Made by a program: the position numbers and the translations under genes. From an uncultured archaeon (GTDB lineage: Archaea; Iainarchaeota; Iainarchaeia; Iainarchaeales; CSSED10-239), in NCBI GenBank assembly GCA_964496765.1, contig CAZCAP010000001.1:1-23188 (forward strand): DNA of 23,188 nucleotides, in the 5' to 3' direction. Positions 138 to 19,208 of the stretch are shown piece after piece (the stretch's first letter is position 1; every line of letters starts with the position of its first letter). A model generated the notes under the pieces. The model searched no databases and was not told where the DNA came from. It was given only the letters and a program-made list of their open reading frames with translations.

Positions 138-2336
138 ATGGGAAGAAAAGAACAGGTTGCAGAACTTGCACAAACATTAATGGCAAACACAAAAAATATT
201 AGAAATATTGCAATTATTGCACATATTGATCACGGTAAATCTACTTTAACTGATAATCTAGTAGCTACTGCTGGATTAATTTCAAAAGATCTTGCAGGAG
301 ATCAAGTTTTCATGGATTCATATATCCTTGAACAGGAAAGAGGTATTACAATTAATGCTTCAAACGTATCAGTACCCTATGCTTTAGGTGATGAAAAATA
401 TTTAATTAATATTATAGATACTCCTGGTCACGTTGATTTCACAGGAGATGTTATTAGAGCAATGAGAGCTGTTGATGGAGCAGTCCTAGTTATTGATTCT
501 GTTGAAGGGGTTATGCCACAAACAGAAACTGTTCTAAGACAAGCATTAAAGGAAAGAGTAAGACCTGTTCTTTTTATTAACAAAGTTGATAGATTAATTA
601 CTGAAATGCATGTAACCCCAGAGGATATGCAAAAGAAATTCGTTAAGGTTGTAATGGATGTTAATAATTTAATATCAAGATATGCAGTAGATGAATTAAA
701 ACAAAAGTGGCAGGTTTCAATTAAAGATGGTTCAGTTTGTTTTGGTTCTGGTTATCATAACTGGGCAATGTCTGTTCCAGCAATGGCTAAATACAATCTG
801 AAGTTTGCAGATATTATAGATTATTGTGAAAAGGAACAACAAAAAGAATTATCAGATAAAATACCAATCTCTGATGTATTCCTAGAAATGGTTATTAATC
901 ATTTACCAAATCCTAAGACTGCTCAAGGATACAGAATTCCTGTTATTTGGAAAGGAGATTTAGATTCACCTGAAGGAAAAGCAATGCAAAATTGTGAAAT
1001 GGGAAACGAAAATGTTGCCATGATGGTAGTAGACGTTGTTCTTGATAAGCATGCAGGAGATATTGCATCAGGTAGAATATATGCTGGTTCAATTAAGAAA
1101 GGAATGGATATAAAAATACTAGGAACAGAAAGAGAAGGTAAGGTTCAACAGGTTGGAATATATCTAGGACCTGAAAGAGTTATATTAGATGAAGTTGAAG
1201 CAGGAAATATTGTTTGTGTAATTGGAATGAAAGAAATTTACACAGGGCAAACTCTTGCAAATAGAGAAATGGAACCATTTGAAGATTTCCTATCGGATGT
1301 TGAACCGGTTATGACTGTTTCCATTGAAGCTAAAAATTCAAAGGATCTTCCAAAACTAATTGATGTTATTCATAATATTACTAAAGAGGATCCAAACATA
1401 AGAGCTGAATTAAATCAAGAAACAGGAGAGCATTTAATTTCAGGAATGGGAGAGCTTCACTTAGAGATTACGCAATACAAGGTTGAGAAAGATAATAATA
1501 TCCCAATAACTGTTTCACCTCCAATTGTTGTTTACTATGAAACAATACAAAAAGATTCACCAGTTATTGAAGGAAAAACACCAAACAAGCATAATAAATT
1601 TAAAATACAGATACAACCAATTGAAGAAGAAATGCTTGAGAAGCTAAGAAAGTTAAAGCTTAATTGTAAGATTAGACAAAATAAAGATATGGAAATAATG
1701 AAGAAGCTTCAGGAGATTGGGTTTACTGGTGATGAATCAAAGAACATCTGGGCTGTATTCAATAATTCTGTTTTAATCAATAGAACAAAGGGTATACAGA
1801 ATTTAAATGAAACCAGAGAATTAATTATTGAAGCATTCCAGGACGCATTGAGAGAAGGTCCAGTTGCTAAGGAAAGAGTTTCTGGTATTCTTGTAAGCTT
1901 AAATGATGCTGTATTACACGAGGATGCTATACATAGAGGGCCTGCTCAGGTTCTTCCTGCAATAACAAGAGCTATCTATGCTGGTGTTCTTGCTAGTGAT
2001 TATACTCTTCTAGAGCCTAAACAACATTTGACTGTATCAGTTCCACAGGATTACATGGGTTCTGTTTCAAGAGTTCTTTCTGGTAGAAGAACACAGATTG
2101 AGGATATCAAGAGTGAAGGAGATCTTTCAATCATTATTGGTAAAATACCAGTTAAGTCAATGATTGGTTTTTCACAGGAAATGAGAGGAGAAACACAGGG
2201 AAGAGCTGTTTGGACTGCTGAATATTCTGGATATGAAAAACTTCCTAAATCCATTTTGAAGGATACAATCATGGAAATTAGAAAAAGAAAAGGATTAGAT
2301 CCAGAACCAAAGACCTGGGAATTCTTCCTAGATTAG
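138..2336 (+). CDS. fusA: Archaeal translation elongation factor 2 (aEF-2)
   Basis: 732-aa ORF with GTPase motifs AHIDHGKST (G1), DTPGH (G3) and NKVD (G4). The diphthamide-site His lies in HEDAIHRGPAQ. AGGTGA SD at 125-130, 7 nt before the ATG. Confidence 0.95.
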   Translation: MGRKEQVAELAQTLMANTKNIRNIAIIAHIDHGKSTLTDNLVATAGLISKDLAGDQVFMDSYILEQERGITINASNVSVPYALGDEKYLINIIDTPGHVDFTGDVIRAMRAVDGAVLVIDSVEGVMPQTETVLRQALKERVRPVLFINKVDRLITEMHVTPEDMQKKFVKVVMDVNNLISRYAVDELKQKWQVSIKDGSVCFGSGYHNWAMSVPAMAKYNLKFADIIDYCEKEQQKELSDKIPISDVFLEMVINHLPNPKTAQGYRIPVIWKGDLDSPEGKAMQNCEMGNENVAMMVVDVVLDKHAGDIASGRIYAGSIKKGMDIKILGTEREGKVQQVGIYLGPERVILDEVEAGNIVCVIGMKEIYTGQTLANREMEPFEDFLSDVEPVMTVSIEAKNSKDLPKLIDVIHNITKEDPNIRAELNQETGEHLISGMGELHLEITQYKVEKDNNIPITVSPPIVVYYETIQKDSPVIEGKTPNKHNKFKIQIQPIEEEMLEKLRKLKLNCKIRQNKDMEIMKKLQEIGFTGDESKNIWAVFNNSVLINRTKGIQNLNETRELIIEAFQDALREGPVAKERVSGILVSLNDAVLHEDAIHRGPAQVLPAITRAIYAGVLASDYTLLEPKQHLTVSVPQDYMGSVSRVLSGRRTQIEDIKSEGDLSIIIGKIPVKSMIGFSQEMRGETQGRAVWTAEYSGYEKLPKSILKDTIMEIRKRKGLDPEPKTWEFFLD

Positions 2337-2361
2337 GGAAATACAAATTCCTAATCTTTAG

Positions 2362-2402
2362 TTTTTTTCTTAGATTAAATTATAGTCTAAGAACTCTTTT
2401 TT
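2362..2402 (+). terminator. Putative EF-2 terminator region (T-runs plus hairpin)
   Basis: T7 run at 2362-2368. Inverted repeat cttaga (2369-2374) / tctaag (2386-2391) with an 11-nt loop, followed by ctcttttttatttt. Archaeal terminators are oligo-T tracts. Confidence 0.4.
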
Positions 2403-2460
2403 ATTTTAATTTTATTTTTTTTGATAATCAATTTCTTATTTTTTTAAGTTTCATTAAATG

Positions 2461-2468
2461 TTGGACGC
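2461..2468 (+). repeat. TTGGACGC motif copy followed by a T-run
   Basis: aaatgTTGGACGCttattttttt; compare 2618-2625. Confidence 0.7.
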
Positions 2469-2617
2469 TTATTTTTTTGTGAAACGAAATAAATTTCTCT
2501 TGAATTTTTGTGTGTGATATTTTTTTTAAATTTTTGTTTTTTTAAATCAAACAAATGGGTGTTGTGTGTATCTCCTTTATTTATGGGTGTTTGCAATAAT
2601 TTACAATTCAAAAAATA

Positions 2618-2625
2618 TTGGACGC
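2618..2625 (+). repeat. TTGGACGC motif copy followed by a T-run
   Basis: aatatTGGACGCagttttttt. Same 8-mer as 2461-2468, in direct orientation, 157 bp apart. Confidence 0.7.
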
Positions 2626-2668
2626 AGTTTTTTTAATTTTTTTTAAAAAAATTAAGCGATTGAAAACA

Positions 2669-2703
2669 TTTATATAGGTTTCTAATTACATATAATTAAT
2701 AAA
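2669..2703 (+). promoter_or_regulatory. Archaeal promoter of micro-ORF 1 (BRE/TATA plus initiator-like box)
   Basis: gaaaacaTTTATATA (TATA 2669-2676). The conserved box cATATAATTAATAAa lies at 2689-2703, 22 nt from TATA start to TATAATTAATAA. Confidence 0.6.
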
Positions 2704-2715
2704 TATATTATAATT

Positions 2716-2736
2716 TTTGCAAATTCATTTTGCAAA
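2716..2736 (+). promoter_or_regulatory. 5' leader stem-loop of micro-ORF 1
   Basis: Two copies of the self-complementary octamer TTTGCAAA (2716-2723, 2729-2736) can pair as an 8-bp stem with the 5-nt loop ttcat. The stem ends 8 nt before the SD GGGGGAG (2745-2751). Confidence 0.45.
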
Positions 2737-2757
2737 GAAAAAAAGGGGGAGACTAAA

Positions 2758-2838
2758 ATGGTTAAGAAGAAAGTTGTTAAGAAAACTGTTGCTAAGAAAC
2801 CAGCTAAAAAAGTAGTTAAGAAAAAGAAGAAGAAGTAA
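2758..2838 (+). CDS. Lysine-rich micro-protein, 26 aa (MVKKKVVKKTVAKKPAKKVVKKKKKK)
   Basis: Not in the supplied ORF track (too short). ATG 2758, TAA 2836-2838. GGGGGAG SD 6 nt upstream, own TATA promoter, T-rich tracts downstream. Sequence is histone-H1-tail-like (AKKPAKK). Confidence 0.45.
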   Translation: MVKKKVVKKTVAKKPAKKVVKKKKKK

Positions 2839-2892
2839 ATCTTTCTGATTTATTTTTTTCTTAACGATGAAATAAATCTTTTTGATTTATTT
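2836..2892 (+). repeat. 20-nt direct repeat pair downstream of micro-ORF 1
   Basis: taaatctttctgatttattt (2836-2855) and taaatctttttgatttattt (2873-2892) match 19/20. Each runs into a T-tract, so these may be duplicated terminators. Confidence 0.6.
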
Positions 2893-2940
2893 CCTTTTTT
2901 TATTTTATATTTTATTCTCGTTCTTATTTTACTAAATTTC

Positions 2941-2967
2941 TTGGACAAATGCTAAATATTTTGGACA
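2941..2967 (+). repeat. Two TTGGACA cores spaced 20 nt start to start
   Basis: aaatttcTTGGACAaatgctaaatattTTGGACAatt. The second core ends 17 nt upstream of the TATA box at 2984. Confidence 0.7.
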
Positions 2968-2983
2968 ATTATAAACTATCAGA

Positions 2984-3018
2984 TTTATATATCTTTGTAT
3001 GCAATATATAATTAATAA
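2984..3018 (+). promoter_or_regulatory. Archaeal promoter of micro-ORF 2 (TATA plus initiator-like box)
   Basis: TTTATATA at 2984-2991 and TATAATTAATAA at 3007-3018, a 23-nt offset. This is the same 12-mer as at 2691 and 5259. Confidence 0.55.
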
Positions 3019-3020
3019 TT

Positions 3021-3043
3021 TTATTCTATTATTTATAGAATAA
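3021..3043 (+). promoter_or_regulatory. 5' leader stem-loop of micro-ORF 2
   Basis: ttattctat (3021-3029) and atagaataa (3035-3043) form a perfect 9-bp inverted repeat with the 5-nt loop tattt. It lies upstream of the SD GGGGGAG at 3069-3075. Confidence 0.45.
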
Positions 3044-3083
3044 TTATTCACGAATTATTCAAAGGAAAGGGGGAGAAAAAAAT

Positions 3084-3119
3084 ATGGTAAAGAAGAAAGC
3101 AAAAGCAAAGAAGAAATAA
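3084..3119 (+). CDS. Lysine-rich micro-ORF, 11 aa (MVKKKAKAKKK)
   Basis: ATG 3084, TAA 3117-3119. Same MVKKK start, GGGGGAG SD (8-nt spacer) and promoter design as 2758-2838. It is very short and could be a truncated paralogue or a regulatory uORF. Confidence 0.3.
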   Translation: MVKKKAKAKKK

Positions 3120-3240
3120 ATTTAATTAATTAAGTTTATTTCAGTTATTTATTTTTTTAATATTTTTTTTCTTTTTTTTATTTTTTTAATCTCCGTTAAT
3201 TACAATACCTTTTAAAACCTAATCTACTTTTATTATATCT

Positions 3241-4389
3241 ATGAAAAAGGATATAATTATACTTGGATCTAATTCTAGTTTGTCCATTGCTATTATTGAC
3301 TTTTTTAAAAAATATAAAAATAAATATAATATTGTAGGAATCACCTATGACTGGTCTTTGGATAATCTTGATCTTTTCCTAAAGCAAATAAAAGAAATTA
3401 ATCCAAAAATTATATATGTGGATAGGAAAGAAGATTTTGATTTGATTCAGGCAAAGGATATATCTGATAAAGTTTCTTTATTCCATGGGGAAGATTCATT
3501 TGTTAAATTTTTAAGATCAACAGAGATAGACATGGTTGTGTCCAATCTTAGAGGCAGCTCATCAATCAAGAAGATATTATCTTCAATCTATGAATATAAA
3601 GATATTACTTTACTTAATTCTTCTCCTATTCTCTATTCTGGACAAATTATTATTCAAGATGCAAAATCAAAAGGAGTTTCTTTGAATATTTGCACATATC
3701 CAATATATTCACTAACTCAATTTTTTAAATCAAGAAAAGTAGAAGATATTTATGCACTTCATTTTTTCACATCAAAACACAGTGAAGAAAACAAAATTGA
3801 AGAATTAGATCCTGATGATTACAAAACCCATTTTGAGTTTGTGAAAGAATTTAATTCAACAAATAAAATTAAAATGCTCTATGAATTTTATCTGACAAAT
3901 TATATGTATAACATACCATTAGCAAAAATTTCTTTTTATGAACAAAGCAAACCACTGATATCCATTGCTGTTCAATTTAAGGATGGAAGTAACCTACTTA
4001 ACACAACCAAGAAAGAAATAGAAAATATATTTAATTATTACTTTCTAGACTCTGATTTATTTCCCACAGTAAAGCTTCCTGTTTATGATACCCTAACCAT
4101 TTCTCTTAAAAGAATAGAGCCTAATAATTATAGCCTATTGAAAATGGGATTGGATGCAATCACAAAAGGAGGAGCAACTCCAATAATCTTCTATATAACC
4201 CTAGATAAGATTATAGAGATGATGTACAATAAGGTTTTAAAGAAAAAAACAGATATTCTTAAAATTGTTGAGGAAATAATTAATGATAATCGTCTCTATA
4301 ATAAAAAACTAGATTTAAGCCTAATTTGTGCTCTAGAAAAAAAAATAAGTGATAGATTAAATGAAAAGTATTTAATTAAAAAGAAATAA
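3241..4389 (+). CDS. DXR-family (1-deoxy-D-xylulose-5-phosphate reductoisomerase-like) protein with degenerate cofactor and catalytic motifs
   Basis: 382 aa, collinear by eye with E. coli Dxr. ILGSNSSLS aligns to ILGSTGSIG, LLNSSPIL to LANKESLV, LNICTYPIYSLTQFF to LLPVDSEHNAIFQSL, FKDGSNLL to YQDGSVLA, and YSLLKMGLDAITKGGATP to YPCLKLAMEAFEQGQAAT. A TATA-like TTTTAAAA at 3210-3217 with no SD suggests a leaderless transcript. Confidence 0.6.
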   Translation: MKKDIIILGSNSSLSIAIIDFFKKYKNKYNIVGITYDWSLDNLDLFLKQIKEINPKIIYVDRKEDFDLIQAKDISDKVSLFHGEDSFVKFLRSTEIDMVVSNLRGSSSIKKILSSIYEYKDITLLNSSPILYSGQIIIQDAKSKGVSLNICTYPIYSLTQFFKSRKVEDIYALHFFTSKHSEENKIEELDPDDYKTHFEFVKEFNSTNKIKMLYEFYLTNYMYNIPLAKISFYEQSKPLISIAVQFKDGSNLLNTTKKEIENIFNYYFLDSDLFPTVKLPVYDTLTISLKRIEPNNYSLLKMGLDAITKGGATPIIFYITLDKIIEMMYNKVLKKKTDILKIVEEIINDNRLYNKKLDLSLICALEKKISDRLNEKYLIKKK

Positions 4390-5227: not shown

Positions 5228-5296
5228 TTTATAAATATTTTTAGCTACATTATTAGTATATAATTAATAATATATAATCTTAATTATTAGGGGGAG
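5228..5296 (+). promoter_or_regulatory. Promoter and leader of the thymidylate operon
   Basis: gaaaccaTTTATAAA (TATA 5228-5235), TATAATTAATAA at 5259-5270, GGGGGAG SD at 5290-5296. Same design as the micro-ORF promoters. It is divergent from the dtdA promoter. Confidence 0.55.
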
Positions 5297-5302
5297 TTAA
5301 AA

Positions 5303-5656
5303 ATGATATATATAGCTAACAAAATGTTTCCATTAAGAATTGATAGAAAATCAAGAGCACCAGTGGAACTAGAAATTTCTTTAAAAAATCAAAACTCATT
5401 AAATAAGTTAATTTCCTATGAAATTGTTTTTCCAGAAGGCATATCTGTAAACACAAAGAATAAGAAAGGAAGTGAGATATTTAAGCTTGGAGAAATGGTT
5501 CCTGATGAAGTAAGGACATTCAAGTATAAATTATTGCCAACTAGCTATTTAGGAGAAGGAACAGTAGAATTGATTGTAAGAGCCTATGAGCACATTGGAT
5601 CCTATGATAATCTAGAACAAACAACAGAAAAAAGAGTTCAAATTAGGGTTGTATAA
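5303..5656 (+). CDS. Hypothetical protein (117 aa), first gene of the operon
   Basis: ORF with a strong GGGGGAG SD 6 nt upstream and non-repetitive composition. No family recognised. Confidence 0.65.
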   Translation: MIYIANKMFPLRIDRKSRAPVELEISLKNQNSLNKLISYEIVFPEGISVNTKNKKGSEIFKLGEMVPDEVRTFKYKLLPTSYLGEGTVELIVRAYEHIGSYDNLEQTTEKRVQIRVV

Positions 5657-11693: not shown

Positions 11694-12375
11694 TCTTAAG
11701 CAGATTCTTTCTTCTCTTAGGAAGAAAGGAGACCCCACTCATGCAAGGAACGAAGAAAAGTATCTTAAAACAAATTTTAAATGCTATGGAGTTTATGGAA
11801 CTGAGCTCCATCTTTCTTTAAATGAGTTTTGTAAATCACATAAAGACATTTCTAAAGCGGACTTGTTATATTTGTTGGACAGTTTGTGGACCTCTAAGTA
11901 CCATACAGAAAAAACATTTGCAATTAAGCTTGTTTCCAAGTATATTTCTCTTTTTGGACCCAAAGATATACCCTATTTCAAAAAATGGTTAAAAGAATCA
12001 GATGGATGGTGTCACACAGATTATATTTGTGGTTTAGTTGTTGGTGAACTTGTATACAAGCACCCTACAATTAAAAAAACAATTAATTGCTGGAGAGATG
12101 ATAAAGTTCTGTGGGTAAGAAGAGCATCCCTAATATCCTATATAGTCTCCATAAGGCATACAGATAGGGACATTAAAGATGTATTCAACAATTCAATTTA
12201 TCTTTCTGGAGAAAAAGATTTTTTTATTAGAAAAGCAATTGGTTGGATATTACGTGAAGCATCTAAAAAATATCCAAAAGAAGTATTAGGTTTTGTTTCT
12301 AAATATGAAAATAAACTCTCAAATCTTTCAAAAAAAGAAGCAATAAGAAATATTAAATTAAAGAAAACTTTATAA
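11662..12375 (+). CDS. DNA alkylation repair protein (AlkC/AlkD-like HEAT-repeat family)
   Basis: KYLKTNFKCYGV, WVRRASLIS and FFIRKAIGWILREASKKYP are typical of the DNA_alkylation family. ATG 11662 is preferred over TTG 11656. It overlaps the deaminase gene by 32 nt in another frame. Confidence 0.7.
   Translation: MEQTIIKALSDLKQILSSLRKKGDPTHARNEEKYLKTNFKCYGVYGTELHLSLNEFCKSHKDISKADLLYLLDSLWTSKYHTEKTFAIKLVSKYISLFGPKDIPYFKKWLKESDGWCHTDYICGLVVGELVYKHPTIKKTINCWRDDKVLWVRRASLISYIVSIRHTDRDIKDVFNNSIYLSGEKDFFIRKAIGWILREASKKYPKEVLGFVSKYENKLSNLSKKEAIRNIKLKKTL
11863..11881 (+). repeat. 19-nt element TTGTTATATTTGTTGGACA, copy A (inside the AlkD-like CDS)
   Basis: Identical 19/19 to the reverse complement of 21803-21821. 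Confidence 0.8.
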
Positions 12376-16882: not shown

Positions 16883-17086
16883 ATGAATATGGGTTTCGGT
16901 AGAGATGGTGGAGACAGAGATAGAGGAAATAGATTTAATAACAGAGGCGGAGGAAGTTTCCAACCAAGACAAATGCATAAAGCAAAGTGTTCTGAATGTG
17001 GACAAGATTGTGAAGTTCCATTCAAACCAACAGAAGGAAAGCCAGTTTTTTGTAGAGAATGCTACAATAAGAGAAGAGTTGATTAA
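16883..17086 (+). CDS. RGG-rich CxxC-x17-CxxC zinc-ribbon protein
   Basis: The N-terminus is Gly/Arg/Asp-rich (GFGRDGGDRDRGNRFNNRGGG). It is followed by CSEC-x17-CREC with the conserved VPFKP..G.PV.C..C pattern. AGGTGA at 16877-16882; ATG 16889 is an alternative start. Confidence 0.75.
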   Translation: MNMGFGRDGGDRDRGNRFNNRGGGSFQPRQMHKAKCSECGQDCEVPFKPTEGKPVFCRECYNKRRVD

Positions 17087-18754: not shown

Positions 18755-18775
18755 TTGGACACTTCTTTTGTCCAA
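18755..18775. promoter_or_regulatory. Perfect palindrome TTGGACA-N7-TGTCCAA (candidate dimeric regulator site)
   Basis: ttggacacttcttttgtccaa sits in the divergent spacer between pyrB (start 18601) and micro-ORF 3 (start 18838). It ends 5 nt before a TATA-like ttttattt at 18781-18788. Confidence 0.6.
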
Positions 18776-18837
18776 TATGCTTTTATTTCCTTTGGTTAAC
18801 CTTTTAATTAAACTAATAAATTTAAGGAGAAATGATT

Positions 18838-18945
18838 ATGGTTTGTGATTGTGGATGTGTGTCTAAAAAACCTGTAGCAAAAAAGAAAGTTGTTGTTGCA
18901 AAGAAGAAAATTGTTGCAACAAAAAAGAAAGTTAAGAAAAAGTAA
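18838..18945 (+). CDS. Cys/Lys-rich micro-protein, 35 aa (MVCDCGCVSKKPVAKKKVVVAKKKIVATKKKVKKK)
   Basis: Not in the ORF track. AAGGAG SD at 18824-18829, 8 nt before ATG 18838; an in-frame ATG at 18832 is too close to the SD. TAA at 18943-18945. It has the MV start and K/V/A composition of 2758-2838. Confidence 0.4.
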   Translation: MVCDCGCVSKKPVAKKKVVVAKKKIVATKKKVKKK

Positions 18946-19208
18946 TTGAAAATTCAGAAAATCAAAAGATCTGAAAAATAGGTGCTTTTCTTTGGGTAAA
19001 TTGAGGGCAATTACTCTACCCCAATCGCCTTCGATTTTTCATGCGTTTTCTAAGTTTTCTCGCAGATCTAGATTTTTCTCGAAAATTTAGCTTTTTCTTC
19101 ATTTTTTCATTGATTTTATGCGTTTTTGGTCGGCATAACAGTTATTATCAAGAACGGAGGTTTTTAAGATGCCGATAGGGTTTTAAATGCTTTCATTAAT
19201 ATTTTAAT
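18946..19208. other. GC-richer non-coding island with internal short repeats
   Basis: About 40% G+C over 19001-19060 against very AT-rich spacers elsewhere. Repeated words tttcatgcgtttt and ttttatgcgttttt. Inverted repeats tcggcat (19130-19136) / atgccga (19169-19175) and ttgggta / taccccaa (18991-19023). No ORF of 60 aa or more. Confidence 0.5.

Follow-up and report, generated by a model that had tools for sequence, protein, structure and literature searches.

Kinetoplastids, Tetrahymena, and eubacteria possess single-domain H1 proteins, in which a Lys/Ala/Pro-rich domain makes up the whole protein (PMC3486875). Low-complexity K/A/P tails of the PAKKA type are also present in mycobacterial DNA-binding proteins, where they modulate DNA binding through charge (PMC3553676; PMC10665949). 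Such tail-only H1-like polycations, which are stand-alone, repetitive, and rich in Lys, Ala, and Pro, form a compositional class and not a homology family. Here, we analyzed a 23,188-nucleotide (nt) stretch of DNA from an uncultured archaeon (contig CAZCAP010000001.1, positions 1 to 23,188; referred to below as the window), in which two lysine-rich micro-open reading frames (micro-ORFs) of 26 and 11 amino acids (aa), ORF1 and ORF2, lie in the spacer between the aEF-2 gene and a DXR-like gene. With 50 to 70% Lys and A/V/P/T spacers, the two micro-ORFs fall into this compositional class. We consider it reasonably probable that both are genuine, conserved mini-genes that encode oligolysine polycations and descend from an H1-tail-like gene.

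The spacer (2337-3240, 904 nt) has a G+C content of 20%, compared with about 30% for the window, and is bounded by aEF-2 (138-2336) upstream and by the DXR-like gene (ATG at 3241) downstream. A first-pass annotation of this DNA had described it as devoid of ORFs of 60 aa or more and as holding a tandem pair of complete miniature expression units. Both descriptions held. The largest spacer ORF has 55 aa, lies on the minus strand, and is not conserved in relatives; the upstream half of the spacer contains no conserved ORF on either strand; and every signal and ORF listed for the two units was found at its place. Each unit is built in the same order: a transcription factor B recognition element (BRE) and TATA box, a ATATAATTAATAA box that begins 21 to 22 nt after the start of the TATA box, a leader hairpin, a GGGGGAG Shine-Dalgarno sequence (SD), an ATG, the K-rich ORF, a hairpin, and T-tracts. 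The features of the two units are as follows.

2662-2676, + strand: BRE-like GAAAACA and TATA box TTTATATA of unit 1 (TATA at 2669-2676)
2690-2702, + strand: ATATAATTAATAA box of unit 1, predicted transcription start region
2714-2738, + strand: leader hairpin of unit 1, TTTTTGCAAA-ttcat-TTTGCAAAGA, with a 10-bp stem and a 5-nt loop
2745-2751, + strand: SD GGGGGAG of unit 1, 6 nt from the ATG
2758-2838, + strand: micro-ORF 1, 26 aa, MVKKKVVKKTVAKKPAKKVVKKKKKK, net charge +15
2833-2901, + strand: two tandem hairpin/T-tract terminators after ORF1, 77-90% column identity, repeat families D2, D6, and D10
2833-2855, + strand: first ORF1 terminator, AAGTAAATC-tttct-GATTTATTT, which holds the ORF1 stop codon
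2869-2893, + strand: second ORF1 terminator, GAAATAAATC-ttttt-GATTTATTTC, then T7
2984-2991, + strand: TATA box of unit 2, TTTATATA
3006-3018, + strand: ATATAATTAATAA box of unit 2
3021-3043, + strand: leader hairpin of unit 2, TTATTCTAT-tattt-ATAGAATAA, with a 5-nt loop
3069-3075, + strand: SD GGGGGAG of unit 2, 8 nt from the ATG
3084-3119, + strand: micro-ORF 2, 11 aa, MVKKKAKAKKK, net charge +7
3113-3142, + strand: ORF2 terminator hairpin, GAAATAAATTTAATT/AATTAAGTTTATTTC, which holds the ORF2 stop codon; inverted repeat I19, 93% complementary
3152-3187, + strand: T7, T8, T8, and T7 tracts after the ORF2 hairpin, with block 3157-3176 94% conserved

Both ORFs begin with MVKKK, the two units are paralogues (repeat families D1, D2, and D4), and ORF1 is followed by no gene other than ORF2. 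To examine conservation, we used homologues of the DXR-like protein to reach a close set of seven distinct lineages (the window, L002, L005, L016, L007, L014, and L008). Relative to the window, their DXR-like proteins are 61 to 78% identical, and EF-2, where present, is 92 to 97% identical. In each of the seven, the DXR-like gene is immediately preceded by a spacer of 0.79 to 0.93 kb in which both micro-ORFs are intact. In the lineage order given above, ORF1 has 26, 18, 16, 19, 19, 18, and 16 aa and ORF2 has 11, 10, 11, 11, 12, 13, and 12 aa. The TATA box TTTATATA is invariant in 14/14 close cassettes, as is the SD, GGGGGAGA, which stands 5 to 7 nt from the ATG. In the close clade, the last codons of every ORF form a K run, and the stop codon that follows (TAA, once TAG) falls within the terminator stem. 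This run is K3 in ORF2 of the window and K4 to K6 in all other close-clade ORFs; the ORF1 orthologues of the six other lineages (16 to 19 aa) all end in K4 to K6 followed by TAA.

The first-pass annotation had also reasoned that an ORF disrupted amid conserved flanks would point to an RNA or DNA element instead. In the seven close lineages and four more distant ones (see below), no disrupted ORF, frameshift, or premature stop was found. A metagenome pattern scan was built from the unit-2 promoter alone, so that copies with a broken ORF would also be caught. It matched six known contigs, all with an intact ORF2, plus 12 AT-rich chance matches, and thus gave no new lineage and no disrupted copy. 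A scan of genome contigs with the DXR-like protein returned a single 1.6-kb contig without the spacer. The spacer is among the best-conserved noncoding-looking regions of the locus. Despite this strong conservation, it is annotated as empty in every assembly examined, because gene callers drop ORFs under about 30 codons.

An additional observation concerns the second hairpin after ORF1 (2866-2893), which opens with ATG AAA TAA, a 2-codon "ORF". The start of this "ORF" is ATG in the window, L002, and L016 and TTG in L005, L007, and L014, and it is absent in L008. GAAATAAATC resembles the end of ORF2 (AAG AAA TAA ATT), and the hairpin appears to be the terminator of a third copy that has been lost or is vestigial.

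Next, the conservation of the units was set against that of silent sites. At four-fold degenerate sites, the identity between the window and the close lineages was 0.41 to 0.60 for the DXR-like gene and 0.63 to 0.74 for EF-2, which is near saturation. The promoters, boxes, leaders, SDs, starts, ORF ends, and terminators were 0.75 to 0.95 identical, with 80 to 95% conservation in the promoter, leader, and terminator blocks. Because these blocks are so well kept where four-fold sites are near saturation, the expression apparatus is under purifying selection, and the peptide is constrained in composition only. The net charge of the ORF2 product was +7 in 7/7 close lineages, despite lengths of 10 to 13 aa and differing sequences (in L014, it is reached with 8 K and 1 D), which suggests selection on charge and not on sequence. 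Lysine was encoded by AAG in 66% of cases in the micro-ORFs versus 32% in the window genes (p = 8e-15); the terminal K runs contained 55 AAG versus 13 AAA codons, and the longest A-run was at most 6. Such a bias would be expected if the frame has to be read and slippery poly(A) is avoided. Residue 2 was V, A, or P in every ORF seen, close or distant. For methionine aminopeptidase, such a residue predicts removal of the initiator Met, which is therefore expected for these peptides. The regularities in charge, codon use, and residue 2 point to a constraint on the peptide or on its translation.

The distant set comprises four lineages (L010/L011, L012/L013, L041/L042, and L043-46), with about 40% identity to the window for the DXR-like protein and, in L010 and L012, 78 to 80% for EF-2. 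At the same position, they hold one longer K-rich gene of 56, 78, 70, and at least 58 aa, respectively, the last copy (L043) being partial because it is cut at the contig end. These long genes are called as genes and consist of 11-residue K/A/P/V repeats, for example, KKKAPVKKAVV or KKKAPARKVVV. They are preceded by TTTATAAA instead of the TTTATATA of the close clade, a TTCTG..CAGAA hairpin, and a GGAGGGA SD, and the TTGGACA boxes described below are also shared. In the simplest history, the ancestor would have carried an H1-tail-like repeat gene, which then underwent shortening and tandem duplication in the clade of the window. A functionless, decaying remnant of the ancestral gene might look similar, since the micro-ORFs are far shorter than their 56- to 78-aa homologues and variable in length. 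We regard such decay as very unlikely, because the TATA box, SD, ATG, frame, stop, and terminators are kept in seven lineages whose silent sites are near saturation, the charge of ORF2 is invariant, and the tandem duplicate has been retained. Separately, we noted that the T-rich block TTTTTTTAATATTTTTTTTCTTTTTTTT past ORF2 (3152-3187) recurs in near-identical form after the long K-rich gene of L010 (about 4170-4210).

We then examined the RNA level. From archaeal TATA spacing, transcription is predicted to start in or just after the ATATAATTAATAA box. In the folds of the predicted transcripts (z-scores, -3.0 and -2.1), the SD and AUG stay open between a 5' hairpin and the hairpins on the 3' side; both ORF1 terminators are predicted in the whole-transcript fold of unit 1 (z-score of -3.0). 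A leader hairpin was found at the same offset in 16/16 leaders examined, with differing stems (TTTGCAAA/TTTGCAAA, TTCTGT/ACAGAA, TTCTGA/TCAGAA, TTCTGC/GCAGAA, and TTCTAT/ATAGAA). For unit 2, the stems vary by lineage yet always pair (TTCTAT/ATAGAA, TTCTGT/ACAGAA, and TTCTGA/TCAGAA). MAFFT failed to align the hairpin arms, and the stem was recovered on cassette 1 by RNAalifold, which gave nine conserved pairs for the unit 1 leader, with one UA<->CG double change and several one-sided G-U changes. Because the one-sided changes pair on the + strand only, the unit 1 leader is better read as a putative RNA hairpin than as a protein-binding DNA palindrome. The single-sequence thermodynamics of the leader hairpins were weak (z-scores from +1.1 to -2.9; unit 1, -2.9), and shuffling of AT-rich sequence often yields stems just as long.

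These structures raise the possibility that the product is the RNA itself or the act of translation, i.e., a regulatory or dual-function RNA such as a sensor or sponge for ribosomes or Lys-tRNA. Conservation is highest in noncoding parts of the units (promoter, leader hairpin, SD, and terminators), the inside of the ORF is free to vary, and the predicted transcripts as a whole exceed shuffled ones in structure. The stop codon also lies inside the terminator stem, which a terminating ribosome would melt. However, no Rfam family was assigned at the gathering threshold or at an E of <=10: the whole window gave 0 matches at the gathering threshold and none in a tRNA search, and the best subthreshold score in 2300-3300 (E = 1.0) was no family match. 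No candidate base-pairing target was identified. Furthermore, the fixed +7 of ORF2, the AAG codons of the terminal K runs, and the V, A, or P at residue 2 are regularities at the level of the peptide or translation, and the distant relatives encode a 56- to 78-aa protein at the same site. An RNA product thus seems rather unlikely to us. A C/D-box sRNA was also considered and was rejected because no conserved C or D boxes were present.

Several observations nevertheless weigh against the interpretation that the micro-ORFs are mini-genes for polycations. Within each unit, conservation is lowest inside the ORF (identities of 0.0 to 0.46 at 2777-2816), and the interior of ORF1 is unalignable. A conserved start, SD spacing, frame, and stop, as generally expected of a protein-coding gene, were found in all 14 close cassettes and the three complete distant genes, but ORFs in purine tracts remain open trivially. 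Such tracts contain no stop codons, so that the ORFs are open in all frames of that strand, and (AAG)n arrays shift in length by 3-nt steps whether coding or not; the conservation of the frame is therefore weaker than it looks. The U-tract that follows each ORF pairs with the A-rich 3' half of that ORF, so a constraint at the RNA level could explain part of the conservation pattern. The likeness between the two units is not independent evidence, because the cassettes are paralogues, and the sample of lineages is small and all from one clade. Because HMMER cannot assess homology between such low-complexity sequences, the case for descent from the long gene is built on synteny, composition, and the regulatory anatomy that the loci share. 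Finally, a peptide of 10 residues might not persist long enough to act.

The signals of the units exceed chance expectation, and their promoter layout was also found elsewhere in the window. GGGGGAG occurs three times versus 0.51 expected. The exact ATATAATTAATAA is found at 2690, 3006, and 5258, each time between a TATA box and a GGGGGAG SD, and the exact ATATAATTAAT likewise has three copies, each within the same promoter layout. The third GGGGGAG is the SD of an ordinary gene for a conserved 117-aa hypothetical protein (5303-5656; no Pfam match), which is preceded by TTTATAAA at 5228, ATATAATTAATAA at 5258, and GGGGGAG at 5290, followed by the ATG. Because this gene uses it too, the TATA/ATATAATTAATAA/GGGGGAG layout is a recurrent promoter/leader type of the genome. 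G-rich SDs stand before many other window genes. Matches to bacterial sigma-70 promoters (TTTATA-N16/17-TATAAT) are present as well, but this assignment was rejected, as the gene content is archaeal (aEF-2 and DTD2). A scan for SD-preceded ATG-ORFs with at least 40% Lys on both strands of 313 kb, comprising the window and related low-G+C DNA, returned only the micro-ORFs, their orthologues, and one ORF at 18838-18945.

The micro-ORFs had been likened in the first-pass annotation to H1 tails and Hc-type repeats while matching no described family. The resemblance was borne out, in that the distant lineages encode a KKKAPVKKAVV-type repeat protein; it does not extend to membership in a curated family, none of which was found in Pfam or NCBIfam. 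ORF1 had no match in either database (E<=10). The long homologues scored 7.9 and 11.1 bits with PF07382 HC2 (cutoff, 40 bits), the 78-aa homologue scored 11.1 bits with NF038052 Hc2 (cutoff, 135 bits), and the 56- and 78-aa homologues scored 13.6 and 12.1 bits with NF038053 hist_H1_lk_Burk (cutoff, 80 bits); these subthreshold matches to Hc2 and Burkholderia H1-like families are compositional. No match to the Pfam Linker_histone family (H1/H5) was obtained at an E of <=10, and the peptides are too short for a winged-helix domain. A PDB search gave 0 matches, and phmmer, queried with the 78-aa homologue, yielded 0 of 8000 candidates, the sequences being short and compositionally biased. In an exact look-up in a protein collection, ORF1 and the 56- and 78-aa homologues were absent, and only the third K-tailed ORF described below was present.

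Very short genes of comparable size and extreme basicity are known for eL41 (25 aa), Thx, bS22, and bL37. By analogy, the micro-ORFs could encode tiny polybasic peptides that bind the ribosome and fill rRNA grooves of the reduced DPANN ribosome. Their length of 10 to 26 aa and their extreme basicity are similar, the strong SD and promoter would fit a highly expressed translation-related gene, and the locus lies directly downstream of EF-2 in 10/11 close and distant lineages. However, neither ORF1 nor the long homologues matched a ribosomal family of Pfam or NCBIfam at an E of <=10, and the close-clade ORFs contain no R or W. Their length shifts fast (26 to 16 aa) and only K is fixed, unlike what is seen in ribosomal proteins that occupy a specific site. 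In addition, the long homologues are built of repeats, and in L016 a gene other than EF-2 precedes the spacer. We consider a ribosomal role unlikely.

The relation of the micro-ORFs to the DXR-like gene downstream was examined through its promoter.

3210-3243, + strand: promoter region of the DXR-like gene, with TATA box TTTTAAAA (3210-3217) and ATG (3241), separate from the micro-gene units and 78-87% conserved

The center of this TATA box lies about 27 nt before the ATG, a geometry that fits a leaderless mRNA, and three or four T7-T8 tracts stand between ORF2 and the promoter. The earlier suggestion that the micro-ORFs might be poly-Lys stalling upstream ORFs is thus disfavored: the DXR-like gene has its own leaderless-type TATA box behind these T-tracts, and ORF1 has no coding target. 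A more specific proposal is that ORF2, with or without ORF1, is a leader ORF or attenuator of the DXR-like gene, acting by poly-Lys stalling and the stop-embedded terminator. The ORF2 stop is indeed embedded in a hairpin with T-tracts behind it, 121 nt before the DXR-like gene, and cmscan gave a very weak match to the Trp leader (E = 2.6; 21.9 bits versus a gathering score of 100). This match is at chance level. Leader-peptide attenuators share a transcription unit with their target and alternate between terminator and antiterminator, whereas here the TATA box of the DXR-like gene is its own, conserved, and at leaderless distance; no alternative antiterminator pairing is evident, and the folds show only terminator hairpins. 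In the distant lineages, moreover, the upstream gene encodes the 56- to 78-aa protein and has its own G+C-containing terminator. Attenuation of the DXR-like gene is therefore very unlikely.

Side observations were made on the neighboring genes. The gene content of the window is archaeal, including aEF-2, the archaeal-type D-aminoacyl-tRNA deacylase (DTD2), Tmk, SHMT, and ThyA. The closest named relatives of the DXR-like protein are from "MAG: archaeon ELA007" and, more distantly, from "Candidatus ainarchaeum sp.", a name that is presumably a garbled form of Candidatus Iainarchaeum (in the NCBI taxonomy, the DPANN lineage Iainarchaeota). The match of the DXR-like protein (3241-4389; homologues P0001-P0017) to DXP reductoisomerase is limited to the N-terminal NAD(P)-binding domain (PF02670, residues 5-131). 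The family of this protein is small, confined to these archaea, and always located beside DTD2 and thymidylate-metabolism genes, and the protein is probably not a true DXR. A 65-aa zinc-finger gene (PF23477 zf_Tbcl_2; about 16889-17086 in the window, from L017 8052-8249), which is called in public annotations, sits in an apparent 490-nt gap between convergent genes and is below the 80-aa ORF cutoff used.

Beyond the earlier annotation, the analysis adds the paralogy of the units, a set of conserved TTGGAC(A) boxes, and a third K-tailed ORF (ORF3). The features concerned are as follows.

2461-2467, + strand: distal TTGGACG box, 206-212 nt before TATA-1 in all lineages, close and distant alike
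2461-2496, + strand: distal region with the box, a T-run, and block GAAACGAAATAAATTT (2481-2496), 82-85% column identity in seven lineages
2618-2624, + strand: proximal TTGGACG box of unit 1, 49-53 nt upstream of the TATA box in 10/10 lineages examined
2932-2971, + strand: two tandem 20-nt units with TTGGACA (2941-2947 and 2961-2967), repeat family D11
18755-18775: perfect palindrome TTGGACA-N7-TGTCCAA, between pyrB (minus strand) and ORF3
18838-18945, + strand: ORF3, 35 aa, MVCDCGCVSKKPVAKKKVVVAKKKIVATKKKVKKK

The spacer thus carries four TTGGAC(A) boxes, at 2461, 2618, 2941, and 2961, all on the + strand. Their spacing was compared in the spacers of the window, L002, L005, L007, L008, L010, L012, L014, L016, and L041. 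The boxes of unit 2 lie exactly 43 and 23 nt before TATA-2 in 7/7 lineages, with a third at -63 in two of them, and the spacing of 49-53 and 206-212 nt also holds for the single long gene of the distant lineages, despite a DXR-like identity of about 40%. The extended motif is roughly (t/g)CAnnAAnTnTTGGACA. Within the window, TTGGACA has 13 copies versus 3.7 expected, and 10/20 TTGGAC sites are intergenic, though intergenic DNA makes up 14% of the window. From their position and conservation, the boxes are putative binding sites of a regulator. Four other TTGGAC sites, at 11875 (+), 17195 (+), 19648 (-), and 21809 (-), share the longer 18-nt motif GYTATATTTSTTGGACA, in which a TATA-like stretch is followed by the box; three of the four are intergenic, and one of these three precedes a PIN-domain (vapBC-like) pair by about 100 nt. 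The block TGAAACGAAAYAAATTT (2477-2496), which immediately follows the distal box and contains a repeated GAAAC, is 85% conserved in the close clade and is explained by no ORF or RNA family. A replication origin was considered for the spacer and rejected, as there was no orc1/cdc6 gene, no inverted ORB-like pair, and no skew change at 2.3-3.2 kb.

In ORF3, which is divergent from pyrB-pyrI, the K-rich tail follows an N-terminal CxCxC motif. Public data sets list this ORF as a gene (P0022), and it may have 37 aa and be leaderless if the ATG at 18832 is its start. No orthologues of ORF3 were obtained from other lineages, and a full HMMER scan gave 0 matches. The approximately 260 nt after ORF3 (18946-19208) are unannotated and look by eye less AT-rich than nearby intergenic DNA; they gave no Rfam match and no convincing ORF.

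From these data, we infer the transcript ends, translation, binding target, and regulator as follows. The two tandemly duplicated mini-genes would each be transcribed independently as a short, stable mRNA of about 150 to 210 nt, with a 5' hairpin, an unstructured SD/AUG, an ORF of 10 to 26 codons, a 3' hairpin overlapping the stop, and U-tracts. Translation would yield oligolysine-rich peptides of about 25 and 10 residues after removal of the initiator Met, with charges of +15 and +7. The micro-ORFs would be miniaturized descendants of the 56- to 78-aa protein with its 11-residue K/A/P/V repeats, itself a candidate stand-alone equivalent of a linker-histone C-terminal tail. The peptides would most likely act by charge alone, as diffusible polycations neutralizing DNA, RNA, or ribosomes and possibly polyphosphate. 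A DNA-binding factor probably tunes transcription through the TTGGAC(A) boxes at their fixed distances from the TATA box. More tentatively, ORF1 and ORF2 could be placed among the smallest conserved archaeal protein genes (10 to 13 codons), producing charge-calibrated (+7 in every lineage), polyamine-like counterions for the nucleic acids of a genome-reduced DPANN cell, originating from a miniaturized and duplicated H1-tail-like gene, and regulated together with at least one other K-tailed micro-protein by a dedicated factor acting at the TTGGACA boxes; this full picture is possible but doubtful.

If the peptides are made, they would extend the H1-tail type of polycation to archaea, since kinetoplastids, Tetrahymena, and eubacteria, and not archaea, are listed in PMC3486875. 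They would also show how far such a protein can shorten and still be kept by selection. Little is known of the nucleoid proteins of DPANN archaea, and the peptides would then add a factor for chromatin or charge balance in this group. With their rigid spacing, the TTGGAC(A) boxes make a putative archaeal regulator accessible to testing.

In having a very small ORF with its end in a terminator hairpin and a T-tract behind it, the locus recalls bacterial leader-peptide attenuators, but there is no antiterminator alternative and no coupled downstream gene, and the transcription machinery is archaeal. Unlike eL41, Thx, bS22, and bL37, the peptides are Lys-only rather than Arg/Trp-rich, and neither their length nor their sequence is conserved. 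With the tails of mycobacterial Ku, HupB/Hlp, and HBHA, they share low-complexity K/A/P repeats; in those proteins, however, the tail accompanies a folded domain, which is lacking here, only ORF3 having a short Cys motif before its tail. The closest likeness is to the tail-only H1s of kinetoplastids and Tetrahymena and to bacterial Hc1/Hc2, AlgP, and Burkholderia H1-like proteins, which are also stand-alone K/A/P-rich polycations built of short repeats. The locus differs from them in its archaeal host, its prominent valine, and scores far under the family cutoffs; at 10 to 26 aa, the window peptides are also 3 to 10 times shorter than the described H1-like members and are split into two transcription units. 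By their composition, they may work in the same way as the tail-only H1 class.

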